From: a virus
Lineage: Duplodnaviria; Caudoviricetes
DNA: 34,287 nucleotides
Reading direction: 5' to 3' (one strand)
Virus record (IMG/VR): IMGVR_UViG_3300020045_013787
Span: 1 to 34,287 of that record
Position 1 is the stretch's first letter. Each line of letters starts with the position of its first letter. This document shows, piece after piece, positions 1 through 34,287 of this stretch. Made by a program: the position numbers and the translations under genes. The notes beneath the pieces were generated by a model. It worked only from the letters and a program-made list of their open reading frames with translations, was not told where the DNA came from and did not search any database.

Positions 1-2
1 TT

Positions 3-236
3 GTGTTTAGTGAGTTCTTTCTAAAGAAATGGAATGAATGGGTAGACGTCTCCGAAGAGGGCTTAAAAGATGCTCAAGTGAAAAGGTATGTAGAAAACCT
101 TATTAAACTACGCATGTTAAGGTTTTCATCTGACCACCTTCATCTTTGCGAGGGTGTCTACAGCTTTCTGATGGTCAGAGCACGGAGCAAAAGCTCGCTC
201 CTTTTGTTTGGGTTTAGTGTCCCTTTTCTTTGCTAA
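3..236 (+). CDS. Possible 3' fragment of a hypothetical gene truncated by the window start
   Basis: The first ~45 codons read as a plausible helical protein. The rest overlaps the initiator gene on the opposite strand. Confidence 0.3.
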   Translation: MFSEFFLKKWNEWVDVSEEGLKDAQVKRYVENLIKLRMLRFSSDHLHLCEGVYSFLMVRARSKSSLLLFGFSVPFLC

Positions 237-1070
237 CTTTCCGAAGTTTTTTCTTAACGTTTGTATAGGGTTTTTTGTGTAAATAGCTGAAGACCAAAAC
301 TCTTCATCTTTTAATGCCCATTCAAGGACTTGTAATATCCTCTCTGCGCTGTGCTTATCCTTGGTCAGGAGAAGATTTACTTGCGTCAGAAACGCACTCA
401 AGTCTGAGGGTTGCCTCCAGTCTGGATTGGCCTTGATAAGCGCATCCACCAGAAGTTTTGTTAAGGACCTGACCTCTTCGCTGAAGTCTGCCTTCTTAAG
501 AACTTTCTTTTGAGAAGAAGATAAAATCTCACCCTCGCCTGCGATAGCAGGCTCTGCGAAGCAGGATTCTTTTTCTGAAATTTCTGAGAGGGGTAGGGGT
601 GTGTTATTACTCTGTATATTCTTTATCTTTTCTTCTGTTGTATTAGAAGGTATCGATTTTATACTTTCTGAAGGTATATTTTTCATACCTTCGATGGTAT
701 CGATTTTATACTTTCGTAAAGATTTTTTGAAAATTATCAAAGATTGGTCAAACACTGTGTAAGATGAAGTTTGGTCGAAAGGATTTTTGCTAAATTTTTC
801 TTTTATTATGAGACCTGCATCGAGCAGCTTCTTTATGCTTTTCTTCACAGATTGGACATCCATACATCCAAAAAAATCGGACATATTGCTTTGAGTTTCG
901 TACATCCAGAATTTTCCATCTACCATCTGAGCGTTAGGTTTTGAGGCATTCATTCTTAACCAATATACTATATGGTTAAAGACAACGGCAGCTTCTATCC
1001 CTAATTCTTGAGCAATCCCTTGATCGAAACTGAGAGAAAAACCAGAAAGGATTTCGTGAGGGTGTTTCAT
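126..1070 (-). CDS. Phage replication initiator (lambda O / replisome organizer-like)
   Basis: N-terminal wHTH-like segment GIEAAVVFNHIVYW...GKFWMYET; C-terminal ILQVLEWALKDEEFWSSAI...LRKNFGKL typical of phage initiators; internal iterons; SD GGAGGT upstream. Confidence 0.85.
   Translation of the reverse strand: MKHPHEILSGFSLSFDQGIAQELGIEAAVVFNHIVYWLRMNASKPNAQMVDGKFWMYETQSNMSDFFGCMDVQSVKKSIKKLLDAGLIIKEKFSKNPFDQTSSYTVFDQSLIIFKKSLRKYKIDTIEGMKNIPSESIKSIPSNTTEEKIKNIQSNNTPLPLSEISEKESCFAEPAIAGEGEILSSSQKKVLKKADFSEEVRSLTKLLVDALIKANPDWRQPSDLSAFLTQVNLLLTKDKHSAERILQVLEWALKDEEFWSSAIYTKNPIQTLRKNFGKLAKKRDTKPKQKERAFAPCSDHQKAVDTLAKMKVVR
646..715. repeat. Three tandem 23-bp imperfect palindromic iterons (putative replication origin)
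   Basis: GAAGGTATCGATTTTATACTTTC (646-668), GAAGGTATATTTTTCATACCTTC (670-692) and GATGGTATCGATTTTATACTTTC (693-715), inside the initiator gene. Confidence 0.8.
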
Positions 1071-1189
1071 TTGTCACCTCCAAAAAATTCACTTTCTTCG
1101 ATGCCCTGAATTTCAGGGTGTCGGAAAGATTTTTTTAATTTCGTATGTGTCTTGACCTGAAATGGGTCATCTGGTAAGTTAGGTGTCAT
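1067..1189 (-). CDS. 40-aa leader ORF translationally coupled to the initiator
   Basis: MTPNLPDDPFQVKTHTKLKKSFRHPEIQGIEESEFFGGDK. Its TGA overlaps the initiator ATG (ATGA), and it is itself ATGA-coupled to a 14-aa ORF at 1186-1230. Confidence 0.45.
   Translation of the reverse strand: MTPNLPDDPFQVKTHTKLKKSFRHPEIQGIEESEFFGGDK
1082..1136. promoter_or_regulatory. Long stem-loop / palindrome directly upstream of the initiator RBS
   Basis: Core CCCTGAA-T-TTCAGGG with extended imperfect arms, flanked by an A-run and a T-run. Confidence 0.6.
1152..1180 (+). promoter_or_regulatory. Sigma70-type promoter, antisense to the replication operon
   Basis: TTGACC-17 nt-TAAGTT with an extended -10 TG. Confidence 0.55.
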
Positions 1190-1402
1190 GGTAAGCAGCC
1201 TTGGTTTAATATTGAGGATTTGTGAGTCATGCTATCTGTCCTTTGGTTTTAAAGTGTTTTGTTGACATGTTATTTCCTTTGATTGGTAGTTTGTCTTGGT
1301 AAATGATTCTGTCATTGTTTTTATGGTAGTTTCTTTTCTTAAGTATTGAATTGTCGCACCTATGTTATTTGCAAGTCTACTAAATGTAGGCTTGTTTTTT
1401 TT
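1187..1402 (+). ncRNA. Putative antisense RNA (~215 nt) over the initiator leader
   Basis: Bounded by the 1152-1180 promoter and a plus-strand terminator at 1372-1402; no long plus-strand ORF. Confidence 0.4.
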
Positions 1403-1429
1403 AGGTGAGAATGTTCTAGGATTATCCAT
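1232..1429 (-). CDS. Hypothetical protein (65 aa from MDNPRTF)
   Basis: ATGGATAA overlap with the stop of the upstream gene; low-complexity K/T-rich product. Confidence 0.35.
   Translation of the reverse strand: MDNPRTFSPKKNKPTFSRLANNIGATIQYLRKETTIKTMTESFTKTNYQSKEITCQQNTLKPKDR
1372..1402 (+). terminator. Intrinsic terminator
   Basis: CAAGTCTAC-TAAAT-GTAGGCTTG (one G-U pair that works only on the plus strand) followed by T8. Confidence 0.65.
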
Positions 1430-1703
1430 TGGGACACCTAGGACAGAAGTAGATGCCATCTGCATCTTCTTTTTGACCATTGACTTTGATTGTCGTTAAA
1501 CTTTCAACTTCAGTGGTGAGAATGTAGCCGTTTATCTCTAACATTCTTAGAAGAGGGGATCCATCCTCTTTTAGGAAAAATAAGCCTCTTTCTATTATGC
1601 TTGTTTGACAAAGATCTACCCAAAGCTTGGCCGCTGAGGTAGACCTTTGTGCTATTTTTTTAAAACACCTATCACAACACATATCTGCCTTACTCTTGTT
1701 CAT
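1422..1703 (-). CDS. Hypothetical Cys-containing protein (possible Zn-binding / wHTH-like)
   Basis: Start re-assigned to MNKSK at 1703, overlapping the upstream stop; CCDRC and CPRC motifs at the two ends. Confidence 0.7.
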   Translation of the reverse strand: MNKSKADMCCDRCFKKIAQRSTSAAKLWVDLCQTSIIERGLFFLKEDGSPLLRMLEINGYILTTEVESLTTIKVNGQKEDADGIYFCPRCPNG

Positions 1704-1962
1704 TAGTGTAGACCAGAGTAACGTGGATACCTTCGTTGAATGGATGCCATTCAAGAAGATTCTCAAGTGATAGTTTTTTTATGTTATTTCGGAATTTTGC
1801 CCAAGTCTCTGACATATCTATGCTTACGAGATTTTTGGAGAAGAAGAACTTTCCTTCATCATCTGCACGATTAATGCACTGGAGGTAAGTAGATAATGCC
1901 TCTGGGCAATGGCGAGAGATCCTTTCGAGGATCTCTTGTGTTGTTACTGCGTATATATCCAT
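1690..1962 (-). CDS. Hypothetical protein, possible winged-helix DNA-binding
   Basis: 90-aa ORF with a helix-turn-helix-wing-like pattern (ALSTYLQC...MSETWAKFRNNIKKLSLENLLEW). Confidence 0.7.
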   Translation of the reverse strand: MDIYAVTTQEILERISRHCPEALSTYLQCINRADDEGKFFFSKNLVSIDMSETWAKFRNNIKKLSLENLLEWHPFNEGIHVTLVYTNEQE

Positions 1963-1971
1963 TCTAAATCC

Positions 1972-2079
1972 TAAGAAACTTTTTTGTTGGACTTAAATCT
2001 GATACACGCGCTAAGATCGGAGTAACTAATTCCCGATCTCTGCTGCGTGTATCAAATCCTTACACCTAGTAGTTTCTTA
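1972..2079. promoter_or_regulatory. Long multi-stem hairpin in the leader of the 1690-1962 gene
   Basis: Nested pairings TAAGAAACT/AGTTTCTTA, TGATACACGC/GCGTGTATCA and AGATCGG/CCGATCT. Confidence 0.7.
1988..2017 (+). promoter_or_regulatory. Possible antisense sigma70-type promoter
   Basis: TGGACT-18 nt-TAAGAT. Confidence 0.4.
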
Positions 2080-2107
2080 TATTAGCTCCTTTCGCAGTAT
2101 AAGACTA

Positions 2108-2145
2108 AAGGCCCCAAGAACTTCGATTCCTGGGGCTTTTTTTTT
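2108..2145 (+). terminator. Intrinsic terminator (possibly bidirectional)
   Basis: GCCCCAAGAA-CTTCGA-TTCCTGGGGC followed by T9. Confidence 0.7.
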
Positions 2146-2150
2146 ACAAC

Positions 2151-2471
2151 CTAAGTGTTTTGCGTGATTTTGTCACGTTTTTTCATTCCTGATTTTCGCA
2201 TTTCTATAGCTGATTCCAGGTTCAAACCAGTCTTTTCGATGAATTGACTTAATACTTGATTCTGAAATTCCTGAGATTTATCGGGATTATCAAAATAGGT
2301 GTATCGTTTTCTAGTAGATGCGTTGATCCATATCTCAGGCATTCTTACCCAGAGTTTTTCATCTTTGTACAAGCATACCTCAAGCTTCAGTATAATATCA
2401 AAATATTTCACGTGTATTTGACCTAAGCGTCGTGCATTTGGTCCCATATTGATTTTTGTTATTTCTATCAT
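2151..2471 (-). CDS. SpoVG-like nucleic-acid-binding protein (tentative)
   Basis: Start MIEITKI with SD AAGGA; beta-strand N-terminus, LWVRMP motif and C-terminal helix EFQNQVL resemble the SpoVG fold. Confidence 0.6.
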   Translation of the reverse strand: MIEITKINMGPNARRLGQIHVKYFDIILKLEVCLYKDEKLWVRMPEIWINASTRKRYTYFDNPDKSQEFQNQVLSQFIEKTGLNLESAIEMRKSGMKKRDKITQNT

Positions 2472-2565
2472 AAAAATTCCTTTCTTTTTGAAAAAAAAAC
2501 TTGTCATATCTGGCTAAATGGTGTTAGTGTAAAATTTCAAATAATTTTTACATAGTAGGTAGGTT

Positions 2566-2685: not shown

Positions 2686-2727
2686 GGCCTTCATACTCTG
2701 CCTACGTTATCGAGAATAGTCTAAATA

Positions 2728-3270
2728 TTGAACGACATAAAGAATAGAGCAAACTACACAAGAGTGACAAATGTTTTATATCCTTTCTCAGGTCTTTACA
2801 AAATAGATCCAGAGATTGTGGCTAGAGCAGCAGCTAGAGGCACTAAAGTTCATAACATCTGTGAAGCGATAATGATGGGGCTTGGTGAGCTTGGAGTTGA
2901 TGAAGAGACCCGTGGATATGTCGAATCTTTCAAGAAATGGTGGGAAATAGGTCATCAAGTCATATCTATCGAAGAACGCTTCTGGGATGACTTTCTAGAA
3001 ATTACAGGTAAAGTTGATCTAATCATAAACACTTCGGAAGGTCTTGCGATTGTTGACCTTAAGACATCTAGTAAGCCCTCACAAACCTGGCAGGCTCAAG
3101 GCTCTGCTTATGCTTATCTAGCAAAAAAATCAGGCCATGACATTCGCAAGATCTTCTTTTTACATCTCAACAAGACTGGTAAGGAAGCTAAGATTTACGA
3201 GTATCCCGTAGACGATAGTTTTTTTTTGTGCATTTTTCGCGTGTTCAATCATTTTTTCAAGAGGGGGTAA
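2728..3270 (+). CDS. PD-(D/E)XK nuclease (RecE/RecB-like exonuclease)
   Basis: Motifs RVTNVL, RGTKVH, E, GKVDL, IVDLKTS and QxxAY. Confidence 0.88.
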   Translation: MNDIKNRANYTRVTNVLYPFSGLYKIDPEIVARAAARGTKVHNICEAIMMGLGELGVDEETRGYVESFKKWWEIGHQVISIEERFWDDFLEITGKVDLIINTSEGLAIVDLKTSSKPSQTWQAQGSAYAYLAKKSGHDIRKIFFLHLNKTGKEAKIYEYPVDDSFFLCIFRVFNHFFKRG

Positions 3271-3273
3271 GGT

Positions 3274-3484: not shown

Positions 3485-4276
3485 ATGCAGAATGAATTAG
3501 TGGTAGCAGACAAAGAAGCTTCTATGCTGGCTATAAACAGACCTTTACCTTCTGAGCATGAGATGATGGTATTCACAACCATAGCTAAGCAAGCTGCTGA
3601 GAGTAAGATGTATGGCTCATATGGGGGACAGCCTGGAATTATGATGACGATACTAGCAGCAAGAGAGCTAGGTGTCCCTCCAATGTTGGCCTTAAATGGA
3701 GGCATATCAAACATTATGGGTAAGCTAGAGATTTCAGCTAGGCTTATGAACGCAATGATGCGAAGAGCAGGTGTTAAGATCACTATCATGGAAAGCACTG
3801 ATGATAGATGCGTTTTAAGGGGTCAAAGAGGCGATAACGGAGACTCAGCCGTGGTATCATACTCCTTAGAAGATGCCAAGAAAGCAGGGCTTGTAAAGCC
3901 GTCTGGTGGATGGGTTAAGAATCCTAAGGATATGTGCTTCGCAAGGGCTATATCTAGACTCGCTCGGCAGATAGCACCCGACGTTATAGGAGGATGCTAC
4001 ATAGAGGGTGAGATTAAAGCCACTGATGCAGAGGTTATAGTCCCACAAGATATTCCCACAGAAATCATAGATTCTAAAGACGATGAAGAGAGCCTTCAAA
4101 GACTCTTAGAAATGTTTGATAAGGAAGATAGATTTCTAGTGCTAGAATACATAAAAGTTGTTATGAAACACTTCGACTGGTCTCAGTCTGAATGTGTTAG
4201 GAAGTTTTTAGAAGAGAAAACTATCGTTGAGAAGTTCACAGTATGGAAAGCTAAACATAAAATGTCAGAACCCTAA
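3485..4276 (+). CDS. recT: RecT-like single-strand annealing recombinase
   Basis: ARELGVPPMLAL, DAKKAGL and WVKNPKDMCFARAISRLARQIAPDVIGG; SD AAGGAG; adjacent exonuclease. Confidence 0.85.
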   Translation: MQNELVVADKEASMLAINRPLPSEHEMMVFTTIAKQAAESKMYGSYGGQPGIMMTILAARELGVPPMLALNGGISNIMGKLEISARLMNAMMRRAGVKITIMESTDDRCVLRGQRGDNGDSAVVSYSLEDAKKAGLVKPSGGWVKNPKDMCFARAISRLARQIAPDVIGGCYIEGEIKATDAEVIVPQDIPTEIIDSKDDEESLQRLLEMFDKEDRFLVLEYIKVVMKHFDWSQSECVRKFLEEKTIVEKFTVWKAKHKMSEP

Positions 4277-4290: not shown

Positions 4291-4515
4291 ATGGAAGAGC
4301 AAAAAGCTGGAAGTTATCTATGCGTATGCCTTGTTATCTTTATAGCTTTTGCATTCGCGTGCAGCATGGCTATATGCCTAACTGGATGCACTTATGCAGT
4401 TACTATGGTTCATACTGAAGGAGTTGCGGAAGATGTAGTAGATGAAGAAGCATCTAATACTCCAAGCCTTTCAGTACCTATGAGTCTAATCCCTAAACCG
4501 TCAATTAAAGGATAA
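4291..4515 (+). CDS. Small lipoprotein
   Basis: Hydrophobic signal followed by lipobox LTGC; SD AAGGA. Confidence 0.7.
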   Translation: MEEQKAGSYLCVCLVIFIAFAFACSMAICLTGCTYAVTMVHTEGVAEDVVDEEASNTPSLSVPMSLIPKPSIKG

Positions 4516-4665: not shown

Positions 4666-4939
4666 AGAAAGAAACCGCTCTGGAAATTCTTCTAGGATTT
4701 CTTAAAGTATTGCCACTGTCGATCACTAGCTCTAAAACCTTTCTCCACTCCTTAGACTTCTGCTTAGTAGTTAAGCATAGAGTAGCCTTAAACACATGAG
4801 CTATACCATCATCTATAAAGTCATAGCCATAAGCTTTTTTAAAGAGGTTTTGAAGGTAAAAGAATTCCCTGCATGGGATATAGCCTTTTACTAAAACCCC
4901 ATGCTCGAGATGGATAATGCCATATTGGCTAACAATCAT
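4664..4939 (-). CDS. Hypothetical protein
   Basis: 91 aa; ATGA-coupled to the upstream fibre gene. Confidence 0.65.
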   Translation of the reverse strand: MIVSQYGIIHLEHGVLVKGYIPCREFFYLQNLFKKAYGYDFIDDGIAHVFKATLCLTTKQKSKEWRKVLELVIDSGNTLRNPRRISRAVSF

Positions 4940-6345
4940 GCAGAATACTCTGTGATAAATAGTGTTGAAAGAACAGCAGGGAAACTTCCTCCACCAGTAG
5001 GTATAGTATTAAGAAATGCCTCTGCTTGGTAGGACGCTCCGTTAGAGGGCCCACCTGCTCTAATCTTAAAAGTTGTAGCAGAAGTTGTTCCTGCTGCCAT
5101 GTAATACTTGAAAGGTATACTCAATGTCAAGGTGCTATTGAAAGTGCTATAAGTTTGTGTGTCTATAGCTCCACCTGTAGAGTAAAGAGCGTCTGTTACA
5201 GAGTCTTGGAATATGCCTATGATCCCTGCTTGTACTCCTGGAGATCCATTAGGTTGCATTCCTATCACTACCACTCCTTCTATGACTAGAATATTAGCAG
5301 CATTTGAAGGGGTTATAGCTACGCTCATTACCTGTGTTCCTTGAGTGTTAGGGAATGTTCCCCCAAGGTTTACGTTGTTAGATAGAGCTGTACCAGCAGA
5401 AGAGGATGTTCTAACCTGTTTTATAAATCCTCCACCTTGAGCTGCTTGCCATGTAGGAGCTGAACCTGTAGTAGCTGTAAGTACTTGACCTGTAGTACCG
5501 TTAGCTATCTCACCTACTACGTTTGTTGCTGAAGAGAAGAGGATAGAGTCTTTTGTTGTAGTAACAGGGTATGTTGCCGTGGAGAAAGCAGGGTCTGATG
5601 TACCACCTGTTGACTGAAGCACTTGCCCAGAAGTTGCTGTTGGCCCTACTTTAGTGATAGTAGTAGTCCCTGCACCTACCAAGACAGCATGGTTTGTAAG
5701 TCCTGTGAGCTGAACCGTTAAGGTATTAAGAGATCCTACAGTAGTTATACTTCCTGAGCCTAGGAGACTAACTTGTCCAGAACCGTTAGGAACAACAGGG
5801 GATGTTCCTGAGTTTGGTATAAAGGAATCTATAGCAGCTCCTCCTCCTGTTAAGGTTACAAAACCATCAGCGTCGACTGTAAATTGCGCAGAGCTGAAGT
5901 TACATAATCCCACTTTAGTACTATCAGCAGAAGCTATAGCCTGTGATCTTTGAACGTTGATAGTAAGAGTTGAAACAGCACCTGAAGTTCTTACTGGGTT
6001 TGTGCCTGCTGCTACAGTTCCACCAATGATATTAAAGTTATTCCCTGTCGGGCCTAGAACTCCTCCAGTGTCTCCTGTGATAGTCTCAACATTAACAGTT
6101 CCTCCACCAAGAGGAAGCCAGTAAGCTACGTTTGCTACAATCTTTGATAGATACCATAGATCGCCTTGTATGCCTGTAGTTGGATCTTTAGAGATATTCC
6201 AGAAGGTTCCATTAGGGTAAAGCTTCCCTGTCTCAGGCTGCCTATAATCAGCTCCTGTAGGCTCTCTATTCCTAGCTACAGTCACAGGAACGTAAACGTT
6301 AGGACCTAGATATTTATTTGGATCTTTTGGACTTAGACCTGCCAT
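4936..6345 (-). CDS. Tail fibre / receptor-binding protein
   Basis: G/T/S-rich shaft repeats (GQVLQST, GQVLTAT...PTWQ), C-terminal beta domain, N-terminal REPTGAD..Y..GTFW anchor; SD AAGGAG. Confidence 0.85.
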   Translation of the reverse strand: MAGLSPKDPNKYLGPNVYVPVTVARNREPTGADYRQPETGKLYPNGTFWNISKDPTTGIQGDLWYLSKIVANVAYWLPLGGGTVNVETITGDTGGVLGPTGNNFNIIGGTVAAGTNPVRTSGAVSTLTINVQRSQAIASADSTKVGLCNFSSAQFTVDADGFVTLTGGGAAIDSFIPNSGTSPVVPNGSGQVSLLGSGSITTVGSLNTLTVQLTGLTNHAVLVGAGTTTITKVGPTATSGQVLQSTGGTSDPAFSTATYPVTTTKDSILFSSATNVVGEIANGTTGQVLTATTGSAPTWQAAQGGGFIKQVRTSSSAGTALSNNVNLGGTFPNTQGTQVMSVAITPSNAANILVIEGVVVIGMQPNGSPGVQAGIIGIFQDSVTDALYSTGGAIDTQTYSTFNSTLTLSIPFKYYMAAGTTSATTFKIRAGGPSNGASYQAEAFLNTIPTGGGSFPAVLSTLFITEYSA

Positions 6346-6354
6346 AGAAACTCC

Positions 6355-7149
6355 TTATGATGTGTACTCAGTTATAGTCATAGCTGCTAGTTGAACGACA
6401 GTAGTTGGAGCACCTGCCCCTCCTGTTAGAGAATTCCCTGCACGAATTTTAAAGGTAGTAGAAGATGTTGTCCCTGCTGCTTGAGAATAGAGAAGTCTTA
6501 TATCTTGCTGGAAATCTATAGCGAAAACAGCAGGTATTGCTCCATCGTTAATGTAGATCGTATTAGCTGCTATATTTGCAGATGTAGCTCCCTGAAACAA
6601 AGAAAGCGATGCATCGTTTGTTGTGCTGGTGCTATTTCCCGTGACAGCGATGTTAAGCCATACTTCAAAAACTAGGATATTAGCAGATGCTGCTGGAGTT
6701 ATAGAGACTGTCATTATTTGAGTTCCTTGAGTCTGCGTCCCTCCCCCTATAGGCATAGCTGTTGTGCATGTGACTGCGCTTGCAGATGTCCTTACCTGCT
6801 TAACAAAAGTTGTAGCTGGGGCTGCTGATGTCCAGTTTGTTCCATTGCTAGTCAGAACATTACCTGAAGTTCCAGGAACTGCCCATGTTTCTGTGCTAGC
6901 AACCCAGTTAGTGCCATCAGAGACTATCATCTTTCTAGACGTAGCAGAGGCGTTAGGGAATGTAGGTGTAGAAGAAACAATATTAGTCCCATCTGAGACT
7001 AAGATCTTCCCTGAAGTTCCTGCGGTGGAAGGATATGTAGCTGTGCTATAGACTGGAGTTATCCCTGCTCCTGCGCCTTGAAGTACAGTCCCTGTTGCCC
7101 CAGTAGGTATATTTGCACTTAGAGTATTCCTAGTATAACCTTGACTCAT
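6355..7149 (-). CDS. Tail fibre / receptor-binding protein
   Basis: SDGTNW / GNVLTSNGT repeats; C-terminal domain paralogous to 4936-6345. Confidence 0.85.
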   Translation of the reverse strand: MSQGYTRNTLSANIPTGATGTVLQGAGAGITPVYSTATYPSTAGTSGKILVSDGTNIVSSTPTFPNASATSRKMIVSDGTNWVASTETWAVPGTSGNVLTSNGTNWTSAAPATTFVKQVRTSASAVTCTTAMPIGGGTQTQGTQIMTVSITPAASANILVFEVWLNIAVTGNSTSTTNDASLSLFQGATSANIAANTIYINDGAIPAVFAIDFQQDIRLLYSQAAGTTSSTTFKIRAGNSLTGGAGAPTTVVQLAAMTITEYTS

Positions 7150-7157
7150 TATCTCTC

Positions 7158-8096
7158 CTATTCAACAAAAAAGGTTGCTGTCAACATAACGCCTGTAGGG
7201 TTTGTAGGGCTCCATGCACCTCCTGTAAACTTCCATTCAATATAATCCCCTGCTGCTACGGTGATGTTTAAGTTCGTGCTGTTAAATGTATTACTCGCTG
7301 CTGTAGCTGATAAAGATGAAGTAATAGTAGTATCTGTTGAATTGTTTAATCTTAAAGCTAGAGTGGATGTCTGGGAAGACCCTAGAGTTCCTGTTACCAC
7401 TAGAGATCCATAGGCTTTATTAATCTTCCCAGCAACAGGGATATAAAATCTACTTACTCCTCCTGTTGCCGTACCAGTAATGAAAGATACAGCCTGAATC
7501 ATGAAATATGGAGTGGAGTCCGCAGGATTTCCAACAGCAGTTTGAATAGAGTAGGCTTGTGCAACTGAGGCTAGAGTTATAGAATTCGATGCATTAGTTA
7601 CCGTTACTCCAGCTCCAGCCGTTAAAGTTCCAGCAGCAGGTGCTCCAGCAGTTGAGCCTATGATGAGTTGTCCATTCGTAGCTATAGCTGTTATAACTGG
7701 TATTCCTCCAGTCCCTGTAGTCAAAACGCCTTGGTTAGCAGTAGCAAGACCTGCGATCACGTTTGTTGAAGATGAATACAGAAGTTGATTTACAGTCGTA
7801 GTGGCAGGATGAGTTGCAGTGGACCATGCAGGAGTAGTGCTTGCTCCTGAAAGTAACATCTGATTAGCGGTAGCAGTTCCAGATAGGATAGCTCCTGCCG
7901 TTCCTGTAGAGTAGAATATACCACCATTGGAGGCTGTAAGGTTTGCGCTAGTTCCACCCTTAGATAATGTTACAGGGTTTCCAAGTGCGTCAACGTAAGT
8001 CTTTACTGCCTGCTGAGAAGGAACAAGTGTATTGCTATTAGGAGAGAGAGCTGTATCTGTGCTTATAGGAACGCCTGAAGTATATCCTTGTGACAT
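7158..8096 (-). CDS. Tail fibre protein
   Basis: Start re-assigned to MSQGYT (SD AGGAG); LVPSQQAVKTYVD and xxGGT fibre motifs; C-terminal beta-sandwich. Confidence 0.85.
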   Translation of the reverse strand: MSQGYTSGVPISTDTALSPNSNTLVPSQQAVKTYVDALGNPVTLSKGGTSANLTASNGGIFYSTGTAGAILSGTATANQMLLSGASTTPAWSTATHPATTTVNQLLYSSSTNVIAGLATANQGVLTTGTGGIPVITAIATNGQLIIGSTAGAPAAGTLTAGAGVTVTNASNSITLASVAQAYSIQTAVGNPADSTPYFMIQAVSFITGTATGGVSRFYIPVAGKINKAYGSLVVTGTLGSSQTSTLALRLNNSTDTTITSSLSATAASNTFNSTNLNITVAAGDYIEWKFTGGAWSPTNPTGVMLTATFFVE

Positions 8097-8097
8097 G

Positions 8098-8427
8098 CTA
8101 TGTGTTCTCCTGGCCAAAGAGTGAGAAGGAAACCGTAGCTAGAGTGGCATAAACTGAAACAATATCTGTCGTTGCTAGAGTTATACCTATTGTTGCTATG
8201 AAGGTATCGTTCCCAGGGATAGACACATCAAAGTACTGATACATCTCATTTGAGATTGCCGCTCCTGCTGGCCTAACCGCTACTCTAAAAGTAGTTGCAG
8301 TAGCAGATCTATTACAAACAACAATACTAGATGCAACAGCAGTTGTAGCAGCAGGGACTGTGTAGATAGTTGTTAATGCAGCTGCCCCAGGTGCAGATTG
8401 CCCTAAGACTTTTAAGGCATTTGCCAT
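8098..8427 (-). CDS. Small beta-sandwich fibre-associated protein
   Basis: MANALKVLGQ...IYTVPA...IVVCNR pattern; TAATG-coupled to a fibre ending FLLGGM. Confidence 0.75.
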   Translation of the reverse strand: MANALKVLGQSAPGAAALTTIYTVPAATTAVASSIVVCNRSATATTFRVAVRPAGAAISNEMYQYFDVSIPGNDTFIATIGITLATTDIVSVYATLATVSFSLFGQENT

Positions 8428-11110: not shown

Positions 11111-11118
11111 AAAACCTC

Positions 11119-26535: not shown

Positions 26536-28026
26536 TTATAACCATTCCCTCCTTAGCCTGTTCCATTCTTCAGCAGTTAAGCCTGCACTAGATCCAGTTC
26601 TTTGGATTGCTTCTGAAGCGTAAATAAGAGCCTTAGAACCATGAGAGGCCCAGTCGTGGTAGCTCTTCTCTCTATAACATCCTAGCTTCTCATTCCATTC
26701 TTTTCTGAAGCACTCTACAGCCTTAATTCCCTTCTCACATTTAGTCTGATCGAAGAAGAATCTTGGTAGCATATTTCTTAAGCATTCAATCCCAAACATC
26801 TCGTTAGAGTCTCTTGGGAGAACATCTACCTTAAGACCCATACCTCTAGCTATATCTACTAAGCTTTTACCGCTCTGTAAAGATCTTGAAGCGGCATCGT
26901 GAGGCATAAAGTGCTTTTCGTAGATGTATGGCTTCTTTTGTAGCCAGTTCACATAGTGAGTTAGAGGCTCATCGCTATTCTCGTAGTAGTCGATGCAATG
27001 AACCTCTTTCCCAGAGAGTTGGAATACCCATATAGCGTTACTGTCCCCTATGCCTATATCCCAAGCAGAATACGTCTTGGAGGCTTCGTCGTATGGGACA
27101 TGGCATATTCTCCTCTCCTGTCTTGCGAGAGACATCATCTTAGCGAAGTAGAAACCTTCATTAGCGGCTTCAAAAGATTCTTCTGGGGTACTGGGATACT
27201 CACGCTTCATGTATTCGCCTTGCGTTTGCATCTTCTTAACGTACCACGCTTTCTGCTCGTCGGTTAAAATAATTTCTTTACATTCTAAATGCTCAAAATA
27301 CTCGCTTATCTCTTTAGTTATCAAGACATTTTTTGAATTTAACACATAATCTGGATGAGCGTGCCAAGGAAAGAACCAAAGCTTCCAATCTAGGGTTCCC
27401 AAAGGTGTGCCTGCATCTTGAATATCTTGAGCGGATTTGCAGAGATTATAGAAGTGTCCCTCTCTACCTCTAGCTGTTGATTCGATACAGACGAACTGGC
27501 CTGCTTGGACGGCATTAAGAGCTCCTGAGATGATCTCATTTGCTTTCTTTGGATTCTCCTGACAAACTTTCGCGAACTCAGTGATGTGTAAGAGCTGGAG
27601 CGTACCACCACGAAGCGACGTAGCAACTCGAAAGACGGAACCATTGGAAAAACGCATTTCATGAACGTTATCTCTGTGCGCATGGCACATATCTCGAATG
27701 AATTGAGGTAGATTGTCATAGGCGAACTTCACCTTATCTATGAAGATTTCACGAGCTATAGGCTTACTATCAGCTACTATAGCTGCGTTAGTGTTTGGTT
27801 GAAAAAGACAAGTATCCAGAAATAGCAATGCGTGGAATGTTGTAATCCCTAGCTGTCTAGCTTTAAGGACAATATTTAGGGTGTGAGAGGATAATAAAGA
27901 CTCTTGAGCCCAGTTTGGCTTGAAATCAACAATATTCCCTTCTTTATCTTTAATTTTGTAGAGGTGGCTTAGTCTCCAGTGTTGATTTCGCAGTAAACCA
28001 AAGGCTTCTTCTTGGGATAGGGTCAT
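26536..28026 (-). CDS. terL: Terminase large subunit
   Basis: Walker A LKARQLGITT, Walker B LHITE, coupling motif ESTA, nuclease WDIG and PHDA. ATG at 28026; the ORF is open to 28065. Confidence 0.95.
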   Translation of the reverse strand: MTLSQEEAFGLLRNQHWRLSHLYKIKDKEGNIVDFKPNWAQESLLSSHTLNIVLKARQLGITTFHALLFLDTCLFQPNTNAAIVADSKPIAREIFIDKVKFAYDNLPQFIRDMCHAHRDNVHEMRFSNGSVFRVATSLRGGTLQLLHITEFAKVCQENPKKANEIISGALNAVQAGQFVCIESTARGREGHFYNLCKSAQDIQDAGTPLGTLDWKLWFFPWHAHPDYVLNSKNVLITKEISEYFEHLECKEIILTDEQKAWYVKKMQTQGEYMKREYPSTPEESFEAANEGFYFAKMMSLARQERRICHVPYDEASKTYSAWDIGIGDSNAIWVFQLSGKEVHCIDYYENSDEPLTHYVNWLQKKPYIYEKHFMPHDAASRSLQSGKSLVDIARGMGLKVDVLPRDSNEMFGIECLRNMLPRFFFDQTKCEKGIKAVECFRKEWNEKLGCYREKSYHDWASHGSKALIYASEAIQRTGSSAGLTAEEWNRLRREWL

Positions 28027-28065
28027 AAACTCACAGAAAAATGTTGCTAAAACATCTTTTATCAA

Positions 28066-28092: not shown

Positions 28093-28725
28093 ATGGAAAT
28101 TGACTGTATAAGCGACCTTCATGGGCATAAACCTAAGTTAAAAGGTGGGGATTTGCTCATAGTGGCAGGGGATTTGACTGCTAGGGATGAATTAGAAGAA
28201 CACATGTATTTCTGTAGCTGGTTAGACAAGCAGAAGTATAAGAGAAAGGTGGTTATAGCAGGGAATCATGATGGAAATATCCAGAGAGATATGATTGATA
28301 GCCTTAGAGGGTGTAACTATCTAGAGGATTCTTTCACGATGTTTGAGGGACTTAAGATCTATGGGTCACCATGGACTAAGACATTCCAGAACTGGAATTT
28401 TATGATGGAACCAGATAAGCTATCAGAGCATTGGGACTACATACCAGATGATGTTGATATTCTCGTTACACATGGTCCTGCTTACGGTTTGCTTGATAAG
28501 GTGAACAATATTAGCCGTGAGAACGTGAATGGCTTGGCGGGGTGTCCAGGCCTCAGGAAAAGGCTAGATGAAATATGTCCAAAGCTTTTCGTTTGTGGTC
28601 ACATACATGAAGGATATGGTCAGACGCTTCTTAAGAATGGCAATCTTCATACTAAATATGTGAATGCATCTCTTATGGATGATAGGTATAATCCTGTGAA
28701 TAAGCCAGTTAGGATAACTTTATAA
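28093..28725 (+). CDS. Calcineurin-like metallophosphoesterase (MPPED/239FB-like)
   Basis: All five motifs present: SDLHG, AGDLT, GNHD, THGP and GHIHE. Confidence 0.93.
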   Translation: MEIDCISDLHGHKPKLKGGDLLIVAGDLTARDELEEHMYFCSWLDKQKYKRKVVIAGNHDGNIQRDMIDSLRGCNYLEDSFTMFEGLKIYGSPWTKTFQNWNFMMEPDKLSEHWDYIPDDVDILVTHGPAYGLLDKVNNISRENVNGLAGCPGLRKRLDEICPKLFVCGHIHEGYGQTLLKNGNLHTKYVNASLMDDRYNPVNKPVRITL

Positions 28726-29430: not shown

Positions 29431-29736
29431 CTCACATTTTTTAGCGTAAGTTCTTCCTGCACCCCAGATGAATAAGACTCCCTCTACTCTTCCTGTATCT
29501 TTAAGGAAAGATGCAGCGTTCTCTTTAATCTCTTCTTCATTATCATAGATATATCTAGAGATATATTTCCCTTGAGTGACGCTCCCATCATCGAAGAACA
29601 TCTGAACCCACACCTTCACATCATCGCCCATTTGAGTATAGTCTAAGAAGTAATTAGACATACTCTCTTGAATAGTCTTGCAATAGCACTCAGCAGGAAG
29701 CTCTCCACATTCTTGGCATTCAGTAGGCATTATCAC
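29383..29736 (-). CDS. Hypothetical protein with N-terminal CxxC...CxC
   Basis: GTGA-coupled to the RNA ligase stop. Confidence 0.65.
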   Translation of the reverse strand: MIMPTECQECGELPAECYCKTIQESMSNYFLDYTQMGDDVKVWVQMFFDDGSVTQGKYISRYIYDNEEEIKENAASFLKDTGRVEGVLFIWGAGRTYAKKCELLTLKGSQTLRLRRL

Positions 29737-30761
29737 TTCTCATAGTTTAGATTTATCACTTTAAAGCTTATAGGTTTACCACATGGGAGATTCTGTTGAG
29801 ATCTTACAACAACACCTTCTTTTTGTTTTCCATTCGGGTAGGTTCCTTCTCCTAAGATCTCTAGGTTGTTTTTAGTAAATATATTACATATAAGTTCTAA
29901 AGGGACAGTAGGGAACTTAATATCTACGCACAGGTTTACATACTCCATCATATCTAGGTATCTATGCTCAGGGATATTGTATGCAGAGAAAGCAAAGCCA
30001 TCAACATCACTTAAACCCATAGGGTTACCTTGGATTTTTGGGCCACATGTTTCCCACTGTAGGGCAATACCTTCAGGAAGCTTATCTTCTAGATTATATT
30101 TTAAAGCAACTTTCCAGTATCCGTTCTCTTCATTTCTTTCGAGTTCTAGGTTTCTAGAGCATATTCCAAAGTTTCCTTTATATCTATACGCAGTAGTGGA
30201 GCTTCCATCAGCCTTCTCAGAGATGTAGTAAGGATTGCCTACCAGTTCATCTACAAGCTCGGGCACTCTTTGATAGTTTGGTTCATCCGTTTTAGGGATG
30301 AAAGAGGGGAAATCCCCTATAGCTATGCCTTGAAGATGTACTGGTATAGGTTTATTATATTTTACTACACCATAGTCTTCTGTCACATCATGTCCTAGTT
30401 CGTATTGAGGCTTAGAGTATGAGAGCGGCATTATAACAACTTCACTAGGAGCACCTCTAAACCTGCGCATCTTCACTCTCCAGTTACTAGCCTCCATGAA
30501 TCGCATATCCTCGGATTCAGGGATTAGAGCATCGGGTAGAAAGACTACGCAAAGTGAGTCTAAGCAAAAGTCACCTTTTTTGACAATACCATTCCACTTT
30601 CCACCACTGCCACATATAACGGTAGCTGACACTATGAAATCTGCGTTAGGAATGGGGTTTAACTGTATAATTTTACCTATGTAGACGAGACTTTGATTGT
30701 TCATTTTTATTCCTGTGGAGGGCATGACGACATCATCATCGTTACAATGGATTTCACTCAT
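29733..30761 (-). CDS. RNA ligase, DRB0094 (Rnl2/Rnl5-like) family
   Basis: N-terminal PIPNADFI domain, FPSFIPKTDE, motif I EKADGSS, CSRN, ETCGPKIQGN, EGVVVR and SFKVIN. Start at 30761 (coupled junction) or 30704. Confidence 0.92.
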   Translation of the reverse strand: MSEIHCNDDDVVMPSTGIKMNNQSLVYIGKIIQLNPIPNADFIVSATVICGSGGKWNGIVKKGDFCLDSLCVVFLPDALIPESEDMRFMEASNWRVKMRRFRGAPSEVVIMPLSYSKPQYELGHDVTEDYGVVKYNKPIPVHLQGIAIGDFPSFIPKTDEPNYQRVPELVDELVGNPYYISEKADGSSTTAYRYKGNFGICSRNLELERNEENGYWKVALKYNLEDKLPEGIALQWETCGPKIQGNPMGLSDVDGFAFSAYNIPEHRYLDMMEYVNLCVDIKFPTVPLELICNIFTKNNLEILGEGTYPNGKQKEGVVVRSQQNLPCGKPISFKVINLNYEK

Positions 30762-30936
30762 CTTTTCCATCCTCGGTCTTTTTTTTGAAAAGTAAAGAGT
30801 TCTCATGACAAACATTCTGTATGCATCCAAGCATGAAAGAAGCCTCCAATAGATCCCCATTAATGATAAGGGTTGCAATTATTCCAATTTTTTCCCTAAG
30901 AAAAGTAAACTTATAATGTAAATCTTCATCACTCAT
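30754..30936 (-). CDS. Hypothetical microprotein (60 aa)
   Basis: Begins MSD, ends GKDE; bounded by junction repeats. Confidence 0.7.
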   Translation of the reverse strand: MSDEDLHYKFTFLREKIGIIATLIINGDLLEASFMLGCIQNVCHENSLLFKKKTEDGKDE

Positions 30937-31105
30937 CTTTCCCTTCCATTTTCGGCATCGACCATAAAATTTGTAAAGTTTCTACTGAGCAGTCACAATA
31001 ACAAGCTGAACACATCGTTTTTCCATCTTTATCTCTTCTGTCTTTATAAAGCCTTCCACATTCACACATTACCGCTGTTATATTTTGAGATTCCTTGTCG
31101 CTCAT
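30929..31105 (-). CDS. 58-aa Cys-rich microprotein (not in ORF track)
   Basis: MSDKESQNITAVMCECGR...MCSACYCDC...EGKDE; bounded by junction repeats. Confidence 0.65.
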   Translation of the reverse strand: MSDKESQNITAVMCECGRLYKDRRDKDGKTMCSACYCDCSVETLQILWSMPKMEGKDE

Positions 31106-31182
31106 CTTTTTTCTCTTGTCGAAATAAAATATATAAAAATTAGCCAGGAAACTATCATAATCATATGATTTACATCACTCAT
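31102..31182 (-). CDS. 26-aa single-TM peptide (not in ORF track)
   Basis: MSDVNHMIMIVSWLIFIYFISTREKR; bounded by junction repeats. Confidence 0.55.
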   Translation of the reverse strand: MSDVNHMIMIVSWLIFIYFISTREKR

Positions 31183-31333
31183 CTTTTTCCTTCATGTTCT
31201 CAACAAATTTATCTATATGTTCCATGCATTGCGATAATGTCATCTTCTTTAAGTGTCCGCTATACATCACTAGAGTTTCTAAGATCATTTCTTTAAAATC
31301 CTTATGAGGATCATCTTTCCAAAGGTTACTCAT
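31175..31333 (-). CDS. 52-aa microprotein (not in ORF track)
   Basis: MSNLWKDDPHKDFKEMILETL...MKEKDE; bounded by junction repeats. Confidence 0.65.
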   Translation of the reverse strand: MSNLWKDDPHKDFKEMILETLVMYSGHLKKMTLSQCMEHIDKFVENMKEKDE

Positions 31334-31574
31334 CTTTTACCTCCTCGAACTTCCAACCTGTCTTGTAAATACAATCATCGAAAGAAGCAGTCTCTATAAT
31401 TTTTCCATCTTCTACAAAATGCGCCCATCCATCGGATAAGATACCGAACTTATCTTTAAAATCTCTCAATAAAACTTTTTTAGCCTCTTCAATAGAATCG
31501 TATTCCCCTCGGAAATCTTCCCAGCCACCTTCTGGATAGTAGTTATTCCCAGCGAAAAGCATTATTTTACTCAT
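31326..31574 (-). CDS. Hypothetical phage protein (82 aa)
   Basis: LFAGNNYYPEGGWEDFRGEYDSIEEA motif typical of small phage accessory proteins. Confidence 0.75.
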   Translation of the reverse strand: MSKIMLFAGNNYYPEGGWEDFRGEYDSIEEAKKVLLRDFKDKFGILSDGWAHFVEDGKIIETASFDDCIYKTGWKFEEVKDE

Positions 31575-31794
31575 CTTTTTCCTCTTTTTTTATGCTAAGT
31601 AAATTTAAAGTCCATGCAGGGTTATACAATGACAAACATATACCAGGACAACCTGTTTTTTTTACGTGAACACAAAAGCACTCATTGTCATGATTAAAAC
31701 AAAAAGTTTTATTACATATACTGCAAAAAGAGTGCGCCCGCAAAGAAACGTCTATCTCTTTACCACAAGTATCGCAAGGAATAATCTCACTCAT
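31567..31794 (-). CDS. Zinc-finger-like microprotein (75 aa)
   Basis: CDTC, CSIC, CxxH, CxC and CxxxC motifs. Confidence 0.7.
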   Translation of the reverse strand: MSEIIPCDTCGKEIDVSLRAHSFCSICNKTFCFNHDNECFCVHVKKTGCPGICLSLYNPAWTLNLLSIKKEEKDE

Positions 31795-31996
31795 CTTCTA
31801 CCCATCCTATTATGCCTACTTCTATTCTGCTTGTCCCAAACTTTGAAGGGACATAACCTTCATCGTCTTTAGAGTAAAAACCACAAAGATTAGCCATATC
31901 TTTGTACTCCTCTCTTGTTACCTCTTGCTTAATTTCATCGACTCTTCGATTGTAAAGGACAAAGGAAATAAAGTATTTTTTTTGTTTCTCACTCAT
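31787..31996 (-). CDS. Hypothetical protein (69 aa)
   Basis: Begins MSE, ends EDE; coupled on both sides. Confidence 0.7.
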   Translation of the reverse strand: MSEKQKKYFISFVLYNRRVDEIKQEVTREEYKDMANLCGFYSKDDEGYVPSKFGTSRIEVGIIGWVEDE

Positions 31997-32208
31997 AAAT
32001 TCTCGTATACAATGAACGTCTCTATTCTAGCGCATATAACATTTATCTCATAGGCAGAGAAGAGTGTTTTCATGCAGCAGTCTTCTTTAAGAAAGTCAGT
32101 GAGAGGTTTAGGATTTGTTTTGGGTGTGGGAATGGTATCTTCGATATTTTCCATAGATATATAAAACATCCTCGTGTTATGTTTTGTGATGGCTACATAA
32201 CGCTTCAT
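31993..32208 (-). CDS. Hypothetical protein (71 aa)
   Basis: ATGA-coupled to the downstream gene. Confidence 0.6.
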   Translation of the reverse strand: MKRYVAITKHNTRMFYISMENIEDTIPTPKTNPKPLTDFLKEDCCMKTLFSAYEINVICARIETFIVYENL

Positions 32209-32272
32209 AAGGGTGTTTTATGGGAGCCTCCTTCTGGGTGTGGTTTTAGAGCTCCACACCTATCTTTCCTTC

Positions 32273-32521
32273 TCACATCTTGATGAAGTATGAGTTCTCT
32301 AGAAGGAATAGAATCCTATCAAGTTTGAGCTGTATAGGCTCTAGATCGTCCTCTAAGAGAAGACAATCTTGGATAGCATCTACCTTCATCTCTATCCTCT
32401 TAAGCTCCCTACTCTGGCATTCCTTAAACTCTTCAAGTCTATCTGAGAGTGTAGGCCCCTTCTTCTCTGTAGCTATGATAGGGCTTGAGAGGAGTAGTAC
32501 TAAACATAGTAGCCTTTTCAT
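32273..32521 (-). CDS. Secreted / signal-peptide coiled-coil protein
   Basis: MKRLLCLVLLLSSPIIA signal-like N-terminus; SD GAGGT. Confidence 0.7.
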   Translation of the reverse strand: MKRLLCLVLLLSSPIIATEKKGPTLSDRLEEFKECQSRELKRIEMKVDAIQDCLLLEDDLEPIQLKLDRILFLLENSYFIKM

Positions 32522-32727
32522 GAGACTACCTCTTCAGTACATGCCTGCTCAAGAGGGTTCACTTGTGGAATAGGATTCACTAAAGCTTGAACCTCTGGAT
32601 TATCTTTAAGAGTTAAACCTCTAACTTCTACAAACTTCAGTCCAGGTACAAGTCTTGTTAGAAGTGCTACCCCTATATCATCTACCATGAGAAGGTATTG
32701 CTTCTCTTGTGTTACTTCTTCACTCAT
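32518..32727 (-). CDS. Hypothetical protein (69 aa)
   Basis: ATGA overlaps at both ends. Confidence 0.7.
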   Translation of the reverse strand: MSEEVTQEKQYLLMVDDIGVALLTRLVPGLKFVEVRGLTLKDNPEVQALVNPIPQVNPLEQACTEEVVS

Positions 32728-33011
32728 TCTCTATCTCCTTCCTTTTTCATCTTTATTCTTAGAACCTCAAGCTTATCATGAAGTGCTGCATTATCATCAT
32801 AGACACTCAGGAAAGCCTTGAGAAGAGGCACTAGAGCTTTAAGCCTATGCTCTTGCCACGCCTCATTCTGCTCTATCTCACACTCATACCTATACTCTAG
32901 GTCTTCTAGCTCACTACTAAACATCTTCCTCTCCTTTGCAGCCCTAAAGCCTGCGTAGTACATTTCTTCATATGCCTTATCTAATCTATCTATACTCCAT
33001 GAGTACATCAC
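32724..33011 (-). CDS. Hypothetical coiled-coil protein (95 aa)
   Basis: GTGA/ATGA overlaps; SD AAGGAG. Confidence 0.7.
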   Translation of the reverse strand: MMYSWSIDRLDKAYEEMYYAGFRAAKERKMFSSELEDLEYRYECEIEQNEAWQEHRLKALVPLLKAFLSVYDDNAALHDKLEVLRIKMKKEGDRE

Positions 33012-33376
33012 CCATACTCCTTGTAAAATTTACGCAGATTCATTGCATTATGAGGGACACATACACAGTTGAAAATATCGCCTGGGTCACCTATCTCATA
33101 GACTGAGATAAGAAAAAACTTATACTCCGATCTAGAGTCCTTAACCTCATACACCACAAACTCTTCATCTGTTGATTCCCCATCTTCATCTATATAACCT
33201 AGAGAGTGTGTTTCATACATCCTCACAAAACCATAATCTTCCCCATCAGGGTTTGCTCTTATAAGCGCATCCTTATAATCCTCACCTTCTTTCCACTCTA
33301 TCCAACAGCACCCTCCCCCTATCACAGGAATACCTATGTAATCACCATCTTCTACAACTGCTGGTATTATATCCAT
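33008..33376 (-). CDS. Acidic hypothetical protein (122 aa)
   Basis: Strong SD AGGAGG; D/E-rich. Confidence 0.7.
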   Translation of the reverse strand: MDIIPAVVEDGDYIGIPVIGGGCCWIEWKEGEDYKDALIRANPDGEDYGFVRMYETHSLGYIDEDGESTDEEFVVYEVKDSRSEYKFFLISVYEIGDPGDIFNCVCVPHNAMNLRKFYKEYG

Positions 33377-33403
33377 CCACTCCTCCTAAACTCTACCCTT
33401 CTC

Positions 33404-33580
33404 TCAATTCACTGGTAAATCAATTTCCACATACTCTTCACATTGGCATCGTATATAGATTCGTGATATATATTCTGGAAAACAGTCTCTTTGACTCAAG
33501 ACTTCATGTTGAATTCCACAGACACATTTTGCTTTATAACTTGTTTTTAACTCTAAAGGGATATCTCCAATTTTCATCAT
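33404..33580 (-). CDS. 58-aa zinc-ribbon-like microprotein (not in ORF track)
   Basis: MMKIGDIPLELKTSYKAKCVCG...RCQCEEYVEIDLPVN; ATGA-coupled to the upstream gene. Confidence 0.6.
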   Translation of the reverse strand: MMKIGDIPLELKTSYKAKCVCGIQHEVLSQRDCFPEYISRIYIRCQCEEYVEIDLPVN

Positions 33581-33789
33581 TCATCCCCCCCATGGACAAA
33601 ACAATTCACCATTATGTTCCCTCTAAGGCCCATCATGTTAGGTATAGGTTCTATAAATCTTAATCCAGTTACTCTATTCCCTCTCAACCCCTCCTGGTTT
33701 GCCCACTCAAACATTCGCTTCATACTCTCTACCAACACAGGATCTAAATCCACTTCTGGACTCAGCCTCATAAGATTGTATTCCCTCAT
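33577..33789 (-). CDS. Hypothetical protein (70 aa)
   Basis: SD GAGG; internal GLRGN duplication. Confidence 0.6.
   Translation of the reverse strand: MREYNLMRLSPEVDLDPVLVESMKRMFEWANQEGLRGNRVTGLRFIEPIPNMMGLRGNIMVNCFVHGGDE
33647..33731. repeat. 85-bp perfect inverted repeat, left arm
   Basis: Exact reverse complement of 34203-34287. Confidence 0.95.
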
Positions 33790-34202
33790 CTATCCTCTCT
33801 TGTATGATCCACCACCCTACATATCACCATCCCTCATTTTTTACCCAGAAATTTTTTTACACAACCACCCACAGAATTTTTTTCGGAAGGGAGTATGTGC
33901 TAATCCTTTTCACCACTCTACATTTTAGGGGAACTATTTTTTTTGAAAAGTGAAGTAAATGTGATCGAGGGGAGGGTATACATATATTCATAGTACCGGT
34001 ACTAACTAAGGTTGCACCCCCTACCCTGAATCCTAGGAAGATCTGGAGTATGGTACCTATTTAAAGTAATGATTACTATGTTAGTACTCGCATGTTCGTG
34101 TGGGGACTGAGTGAAGGCCTAGCTTGTGGTATTATATGTGTGCTGTGAGTGTAGTGAGAGAGGTGTTAGTGTGTGTACACTATTGCTTAGGTTGGTTAGA
34201 CT

Positions 34203-34287
34203 TAGAGAGTATGAAGCGAATGTTTGAGTGGGCAAACCAGGAGGGGTTGAGAGGGAATAGAGTAACTGGATTAAGATTTATAGAACC
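34203..34287. repeat. 85-bp perfect inverted repeat, right arm (runs to the window end)
   Basis: Exact reverse complement of 33647-33731. Confidence 0.95.

Follow-up and report, generated by a model that had tools for sequence, protein, structure and literature searches.

Which host is infected by the phage recorded in IMG/VR as IMGVR_UViG_3300020045_013787? This linear virus record of 34,287 bases is, at its full length, the window analyzed here, and it is most (∼86%, the completeness given by CheckV) of the ∼40-kb genome of a short-tailed, double-stranded DNA phage. A preliminary description of the sequence had proposed environmental chlamydiae as the host, in part because of a small gene at 12667–12888 (hereafter the 12667 gene), which encodes a transmembrane and coiled-coil protein. 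Our results back that proposal with spacers from clustered regularly interspaced short palindromic repeats (CRISPR), with an integrated relative, and with the distribution of the 12667 protein family. We conclude, with a probability of roughly 0.87, that the window phage infects environmental chlamydiae (Chlamydiota).

Evidence bearing on a chlamydial host

A capsid search of IMG/VR returned 110 relatives, of which 80, 67–96% identical, were kept, and JGI and other metagenomes added 106 more stretches. Ten relatives are near-complete at 39.6–42.3 kb, six of them with direct terminal repeats; in three of the ten, 213–475 end bases are missing from the sequence. These genomes supply the genes expected beyond the window, namely the small terminase subunit (TerS, 10/10), RusA (9/10), a 243-aa serine recombinase (9/10), a DnaC-like loader (8/10) and a helix-turn-helix (HTH) regulator. 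The tenth genome carries a tyrosine integrase instead of the serine recombinase, and the position of the recombinase gene is the part missing from the window. Among the capsid matches listed (30 of 33), no named phage exceeds 32% identity. As judged from its genes, the phage appears to belong to no named family that we found but to a large uncultured one, which probably works like a temperate-type podovirus.

The 12667 protein contains the motifs quoted in the preliminary description (...DEVKDFHNRLC) and has a hydrophobic N-terminus. Its family comprises 4,046 clusters at 90% identity, often with several copies per phage. A motif scan over one genome per GTDB species found 18 stretches in 15 genomes. 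Ten of the stretches belong to Chlamydiota by title, and 11 when L241 is included, a stretch titled Verrucomicrobia that draws the Chlamydiota phylum sample; together they represent 8 of the 15 genomes, in line with the resemblance to environmental chlamydial proteins proposed in the preliminary description. With one chance match removed, the binomial probability of 8/14 genomes being Chlamydiota is <1e-10, assuming a Chlamydiota share of 0.5–2%. Two of the 11 chlamydial stretches are phage contigs, and the other nine adjoin host genes (tgt, dxr, hrcA, queE), with no further window-gene match in the vicinity, one copy being broken. These solo genes (L230, L232, L238, L239, L241, L242, L244, L228, L279) lie at differing chromosomal places. 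The chromosomal 12667-type genes in Chlamydiota are 65–73% identical to close-clade copies. The seven non-chlamydial matches consist of five lone 22–36-kb contigs of the same phage type, one 1.8-kb contig with phage-family neighbors and the chance match. Outside phage DNA, then, the motif scan of GTDB species finds this family only in Chlamydiota. A profile of the family matched 7 of 400 sampled Chlamydiota. A hypothetical gene of the Simkania plasmid pSn (L081:6836–7192), which adjoins an HTH regulator and a Bet recombinase, matched the profile weakly (E 0.0014) and was not counted, and no chlamydial match came from PLSDB when the initiator and two 12667-type proteins served as queries.

A related prophage does occur in a metagenome-assembled genome (MAG) of Chlamydiota. 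A capsid profile matched 8 of 401 Chlamydiota, and the best match, the 137-kb contig G304:C1, holds a syntenic prophage at ∼42.0–77.7 kb that shares 18 of 54 window genes, with identities of 39% (portal), 44% (capsid) and 46% (large terminase subunit, TerL). Its flanks are core genes (waaA, pfp, ribH on one side; kdsB, pyrG, ruvX on the other). The right-flank PyrG is 67–77% identical to two Parachlamydiales as compared with 51–54% to two controls, and a left-flank gene is present in 2/3 chlamydial and 0/2 other genomes, with G419 counted as chlamydial; an intended Verrucomicrobiota control drew the Chlamydiota sample and was dropped, which shows G419 to be chlamydial. In a quick IQ-TREE analysis of 81 capsids, the G304 prophage groups with the window's family in a clade of 19 rows with a Shimodaira–Hasegawa-like approximate likelihood ratio (SH-aLRT) support of 100, no bootstrap being run, and the integrated control matches and isolates are placed elsewhere. 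Capsid matches above 160 bits number four in Chlamydiota and none in Planctomycetota or Pseudomonadota. A decayed remnant with capsid and TerL fragments was also seen at 208.7–212.2 kb of G190:C4 (L261, L262), a 223-kb chlamydial contig.

The ends of the G304 prophage carry a 17-bp direct repeat within an 11-6-11 site, at 41,988–42,009 and 77,699–77,720 (L256, L257), one copy conserved and one diverged. Exact copies of this site, one or two per genome, are present in 5/5 chlamydial genomes, and the site is also found on phage contigs in bins G168 and G271. We read it as dif from the layout described in the portion of PMC7062461 available to us; predicted dif sites are given for Chlamydiae in the accessible part of PMC3025954. 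Flanked by these sites, 35.7 kb long and with no visible integrase, the prophage is a candidate for a tailed phage that relies on the XerCD of its host. A stretch of ∼3.5 kb with small open reading frames (ORFs) interrupts its TerL, and two copies of a SocA-type cassette (82%) lie on either side of the right junction. The window itself has no dif-like site (best score 8.3 vs 30–34 for five training sites), and none of the ten relatives scores above 19.2.

Cas1 was found in 12 of 400 Chlamydiota, and 255 spacers were collected from 10 CRISPR arrays in 8 genomes. Translated spacers gave six matches scoring at least 45 to the phage set, as compared with none for reversed proteins and none for shuffled peptides. 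With size-matched sets and a score of at least 42, four spacers match the window plus four close relatives, three match phages from chlamydial bins, and none matches five more distant clade members, four control phages or the window alone. When a profile of the clade TerS was used, the top four of the 255 spacers all came from the 25-spacer type I-F array of G084 (35.0, 25.3, 23.8 and 14.8 bits; the shuffled maximum is 10.4 of 765). This profile has 28 matches, each of them in a clade locus or in a fragment retrieved with the clade's TerS or exonuclease, and none in the sister group described below, the chlamydial-bin phages or the control phages. The 84-kb array contig carries pheT, tkt, hemE, a ptsN-ptsN-dut-accD-sod run, and a nucleoside tri-/diphosphate (NTP/NDP) transporter-like gene 42% identical to a Parachlamydiales copy; we take the ptsN-dut-accD-sod order to be typical of chlamydiae. 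That 4 of the 25 spacers in this array (L405, on G084:C35) target a single 138-aa TerS gene, with two of the four next to each other, suggests either primed acquisition or a hotspot close to where packaging starts. Finally, a spacer of the genome G275, taken as chlamydial from its phylum sample and its 3.9-Mb contig, encodes the 12667-family motif and ranks top of the 255 (20.7 vs a null maximum of 14.7); a Blast comparison of the flanks of the G275 arrays with chlamydial loci showed no overlap. The spacer evidence is thus positive at the protein level for the clade TerS, and negative for the window itself, whose own TerS lies in the missing part. At the DNA level, spacer matching to window and clade is near the shuffled background, and exact degenerate IMG/VR scans for three spacer-encoded peptides found nothing.

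Both arrays of G275 target a second large podovirus group (G864: L411, L412; L424–L505), with genomes of 32–39 kb and 82 IMG/VR stretches recovered by one motif. In this sister group, TerL and capsid type are different, and the moron, the portal type, the nozzle and the N-terminus of the initiator are common to it and the window. Nine of the 255 spacers lie within 7 mismatches of it, as compared with 1 of 510 shuffled spacers; the best match (L424) has 3 mismatches and a CC protospacer-adjacent motif (PAM), partly by construction because that locus was fetched with the spacer's peptide. We consider it reasonably probable that endolysin-free podoviruses of environmental chlamydiae form a large, diverse and so far undescribed radiation. 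It would comprise at least the window's clade and this sister group, whose terminase differs; its members would integrate through a serine recombinase or through dif/Xer of the host, would have a family of more than 4,000 small membrane proteins in common with the chromosomes of their hosts, and would be a main target of chlamydial CRISPR arrays.

Weighing the host assignment

A number of results weigh against a chlamydial host. No integrated member of the close clade was found in GTDB genomes with two capsid-alignment patterns, none of the 80 kept close-clade stretches (JGI and other metagenomes) lies on a contig longer than 41.5 kb, and neither the serine recombinase nor the LTGC lipoprotein was found in five chlamydial genomes; the preliminary description had likened the lipoprotein to chlamydial proteins, a likeness that does not hold for these five. 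No 12667-family gene is present in the G304 prophage, which also has a split TerL and comes from a MAG assembly. Loose capsid matches, seeds excluded, are not enriched (8/401 Chlamydiota, 1/220 Planctomycetota, 4/220 Pseudomonadota). Among the 255 spacers, the best match to window DNA has 10 mismatches, and the matches to the close clade have at least 7 mismatches at the DNA level, lack the expected PAM and rest mainly on one MAG array. The sole named 12667 homolog is labeled a Nitrososphaeraceae archaeon, on a 39-kb contig, and the best TerL matches among named phages and plasmids are proteobacterial phages at 40–44%. In addition, Protochlamydia makes a complete sacculus according to the section of PMC5814848 consulted, so that reduced peptidoglycan, which bears on phage release, is not general to chlamydiae.

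Part of this would be accommodated if the wider podovirus group infected chlamydiae and the window's clade had switched to a different host living in the same protist cells (e.g., Dependentiae, Legionellales or Rickettsiales), the moron being kept by exchange. The lack of an integrated or binned close-clade member, the modest capsid identity of the G304 prophage and the lack of a spacer match to the window all fit such a switch, and our control phyla were Planctomycetota and Pseudomonadota, with those three groups outside the comparison. Four spacers of a chlamydial array nevertheless match the TerS of the window's own clade, and the chromosomal genes close to clade copies occur in Chlamydiota and, in the motif scan of GTDB species, in no other chromosome. 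We therefore regard the switch as improbable.

Still less probable, to the point of being hardly credible, is a free-living bacterium or archaeon as host, the chlamydial signal then arising from phage contigs (36–46% GC content) binned into chlamydial MAGs. In favor of this reading, bins of Scalindua, Bacteroidales, Aquaspirillum, Kosmotogaceae and an archaeon likewise hold related lone contigs, and the best TerL matches are proteobacterial. Binning cannot, however, account for the prophage embedded in a 137-kb chromosomal contig, for solo genes on contigs of 91 to 998 kb, or for spacers whose arrays lie on contigs of 84 kb to 3.9 Mb, and the non-chlamydial matches are scattered, one per taxon. 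Because phage contigs (L227, L229, L231, L236, L237, L243; P0222) sit in unrelated MAGs (Scalindua, Bacteroidales, Aquaspirillum, Kosmotogaceae, ammonia-oxidising archaea), the best-hit taxonomy of their proteins misleads. In the window, TerL carries little host signal, as its 40–44% to proteobacterial phages is barely below the 46% to the G304 prophage; the portal does carry such a signal, being 39% identical over its full length to that of the G304 prophage, as compared with partial matches of 20–29% to named phages. An environmental chlamydial host remains the reading that we favor.

Gene content, lysis and a proposed life cycle

The features of the window are collected in Table 1. By genes alone, a capsid, portal, TerL, adaptor and nozzle with no tape measure or tail tube define a podovirus morphotype, and all five were identified, as expected from the preliminary description; tape-measure and tail-tube matches in the window were only weak, Gly-rich or partial. 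The nozzle profile matches that of Vibrio phage VP1 (E 1e-15), and the nozzle model (pLDDT, the predicted local distance difference test score, 78) has structural matches to the VP1, Pa223, SU10, T7 and P22 nozzles. An E1-FCCH-like beta domain is common to 17381–19597, 21498–22202 and 28720–29169, and over this stretch the nozzle profile also matches ubiquitin-activating enzymes in the PDB. In the close relatives L059, L063, L073 and L075, the capsid match spans 1.16–1.26 kb rather than 0.94 kb; the gene is interrupted by a ∼220–320-base insert, possibly an intron. A glycosyltransferase family 92 gene adjoins the tail fibers in family member G001 (L083:7794–8648).

Table 1. Features of the 34,287-base window, with strand and basis of assignment
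Feature	Position	Strand	Basis or remark
Left end, likely chimeric	1..120	+	inverted piece of gene that follows replication genes in relatives
Replication initiator, lambda-O/DnaD-like	126..1070	-	PHROGs; matched in 5/5 relatives
Four small early genes	1232..2507	-	include HTH-like 1690–1962 and 2151–2507
PD-(D/E)XK exonuclease	2728..3270	+	family in 10/10 relatives
RecT-like single-stranded DNA annealing protein	3485..4276	+	family matches
Small predicted lipoprotein, lipobox-like LTGC	4291..4515	+	conserved in phage family
Lys/Ala-rich microgene, 36 aa	4520..4630	+	64% K+A
Tail fiber and fiber-associated genes	4936..12543	-	PHROG tail-fiber matches for 7158, 8098, 11119; repeats D1, D2
Transmembrane and coiled-coil moron (12667 gene)	12667..12888	+	strand opposite virion operon; family also in chlamydial chromosomes
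Three predicted DNA-ejection (internal virion) proteins, 789, 370 and 213 aa	12968..17093	-	inferred from size and position after nozzle; conserved
Tail nozzle, 738 aa, beta-propeller, VP1 gp16/T7 gp12/P22 gp10 type	17381..19597	-	profile and fold
Head-tail adaptor, 238 aa	20220..20936	-	folds like podovirus adaptors
Major capsid protein, N4-gp56 family	22211..23155	-	TIGR04387 above cut-off
Likely scaffold protein	23202..23825	-	between portal and capsid; present in 77/80 loci
P22-like portal	24486..26513	-	PF16510, 244 bits
TerL	26536..28065	-	PHROGs and sequence matches
Metallophosphoesterase	28093..28725	+	51% to copy in G304 prophage
RNA ligase	29733..30878	-	family matches
Variable small ORFs	30754..33789	-	between missing small terminase and TerL
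Right-end inverted copy	34203..34287	.	likely assembly or amplification chimera

Both ends of the window carry inverted pieces and look chimeric, as judged from their sequence. The last 85 nt are a perfect inverted copy of 33647–33731, and the first ∼120 bases are 40% identical over 40 aa to L083:15974–16255, a gene located downstream of the replication genes in G001, one of the relatives; the next gene expected at the left end stops after 8 codons. No tRNA was found in the window, and a sequencing-run search returned two runs (shares 0.08 and 0.05) with no evidence of habitat. The Lys/Ala-rich microgene that had been called histone-H1-like is a real ORF; it matches no Pfam, PHROG or NCBIfam family, those of Hc1/Hc2 included, and is not host-diagnostic; unrelated basic micro-ORFs are present in two relatives. 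Both this microgene and the lipoprotein are uninformative about the host. RNA repair genes recur in the family, as the RNA ligase of the window, RtcB and polynucleotide kinase (L091:8423–9607; L099:6684–7223), and 6/10 relatives have tRNA genes, hinting at tRNA-cleaving host defenses.

As noted in the preliminary description, no recognizable endolysin or holin, and likewise no spanin, was found among the 52 ORFs of the window. A "tail associated lysin" match corresponds to a 57-residue Gly-rich stretch of 16452–17093 and was not counted as a lysis gene. The suggestion that the lysis genes lie outside the window is probably incorrect, as none was recognized with PHROGs in 149 cluster representatives of the ten near-complete relatives; these are 149 of the 165 representatives not shared with the window, the 16 left out being mostly shadow frames, and singletons below 90 aa were outside the scan. 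The 33 ORFs of the G304 prophage contain no lysis family either. By comparison, 4/4 phages chosen by capsid, portal or TerL similarity have an annotated lysozyme or endolysin. Within reach of profile searches, the absence of recognizable lysis genes therefore looks like a family trait, and the phage likely leaves its host without a classical endolysin. Chlamydia trachomatis is described as having a septal ring only, and no sacculus was isolated from Simkania (PMC5814848, read in part). The weakest step of our proposal is release through damage to the membrane of a host that has little peptidoglycan, and we give it an even chance.

The nearest ESM Atlas cluster of the 12667 protein bears the automatic name "Holin family protein", with no Pfam assignment, and the gene has no neighboring endolysin. 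Its position opposite the late operon and its survival as a solo gene in host operons agree better with a moron for exclusion or host interaction than with a holin. The likeliest role, at about even odds, is that of a membrane moron expressed early or in the lysogen, for example a superinfection-exclusion factor; a holin or releasin is the less likely, and rather doubtful, assignment.

Taken together, the gene content would be consistent with the following cycle. The virion would bind the extracellular elementary body, entering on or into the eukaryotic host cell together with it, or would meet the bacterium inside its protist or animal host. DNA would be ejected through the nozzle with the three internal proteins, replicated by the initiator and loader, and packaged through the portal. 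The phage may persist as a prophage or as a circular episome resolved by the serine recombinase, whereas integration at the host dif site appears to be the route taken by a sister lineage. Release would occur through membrane disruption by small membrane proteins in a host with reduced peptidoglycan, with the 4291 lipoprotein and the 12667 protein as candidates.

Relation to known phages

Phage particles have reportedly been seen by electron microscopy in Neochlamydia. Our literature search, which covered few subscription journals, yielded no paper on tailed phages of chlamydiae, and the portions consulted of PMC8242063, PMC11338181 and PMC9997750 contain no tailed chlamydial phage. According to the part of PMC5010888 available to us, chlamydial CRISPR spacers matched nothing in databases; the present family gives such previously unmatched spacers a target. 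It also brings three questions within reach of testing: how a tailed phage gains access to a bacterium living within a eukaryotic cell, how such a phage gets out with no endolysin, and whether phages carry genes from one chlamydia to another. Genetic tools for environmental chlamydiae are few, and a temperate 40-kb phage or a relative that integrates at dif could provide one.

The window phage resembles Vibrio phage VP1 (PDB 8zkk), Pseudomonas phage Pa223 (9nwi), SU10, P22 and T7 in its portal, adaptor and nozzle folds and in gene order, the terminase-portal-scaffold-capsid-adaptor-nozzle-internal proteins series being shared with podoviruses. Identity over the structural alignments is only 10–15%, however, and the window phage differs from all five in its lack of recognizable lysis genes and, in all likelihood, in host. 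Pseudoalteromonas phage vB_Pun_Y3 and Bacillus phage Page are alike in their N4-gp56 capsid family, their size (40–49 kb) and their lambdoid initiator-type replication, but their capsids are 26–28% identical and lie on the other side of the tree, and Y3 has a lysozyme and a holin.

Closer to the proposed host, tailed-phage genes have been described on plasmids of Protochlamydia massiliensis and Criblamydia sequanensis and in a terminase island of Pr. naegleriophila (PMC7846284, PMC5010888). As far as the consulted text of these sources goes, those cases are plasmid or island remnants with a terminase and tail tip protein L, and not complete podovirus genomes; among the TerL matches listed (15 of 24) there is no chlamydial plasmid. 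The dif/XerCD-integrating enterogokushoviruses, as presented in the consulted part of PMC7062461, resemble the G304 relative, which is likewise dif-flanked with no integrase seen; they are single-stranded DNA phages, whereas the window has no dif-like site and its clade carries a serine recombinase. Finally, the chlamydial phages described in the part of PMC8466579 available to us are single-stranded DNA microviruses, the Chlamydiamicrovirus group (Chp1-4, phiCPG1, phiCPAR39), with circular genomes of ∼6 kb, 30-nm tailless capsids and Chlamydiaceae as hosts. The window phage would share with these Microviridae a host among the Chlamydiota, and differs from them in having a 34-kb tailed-phage genome.

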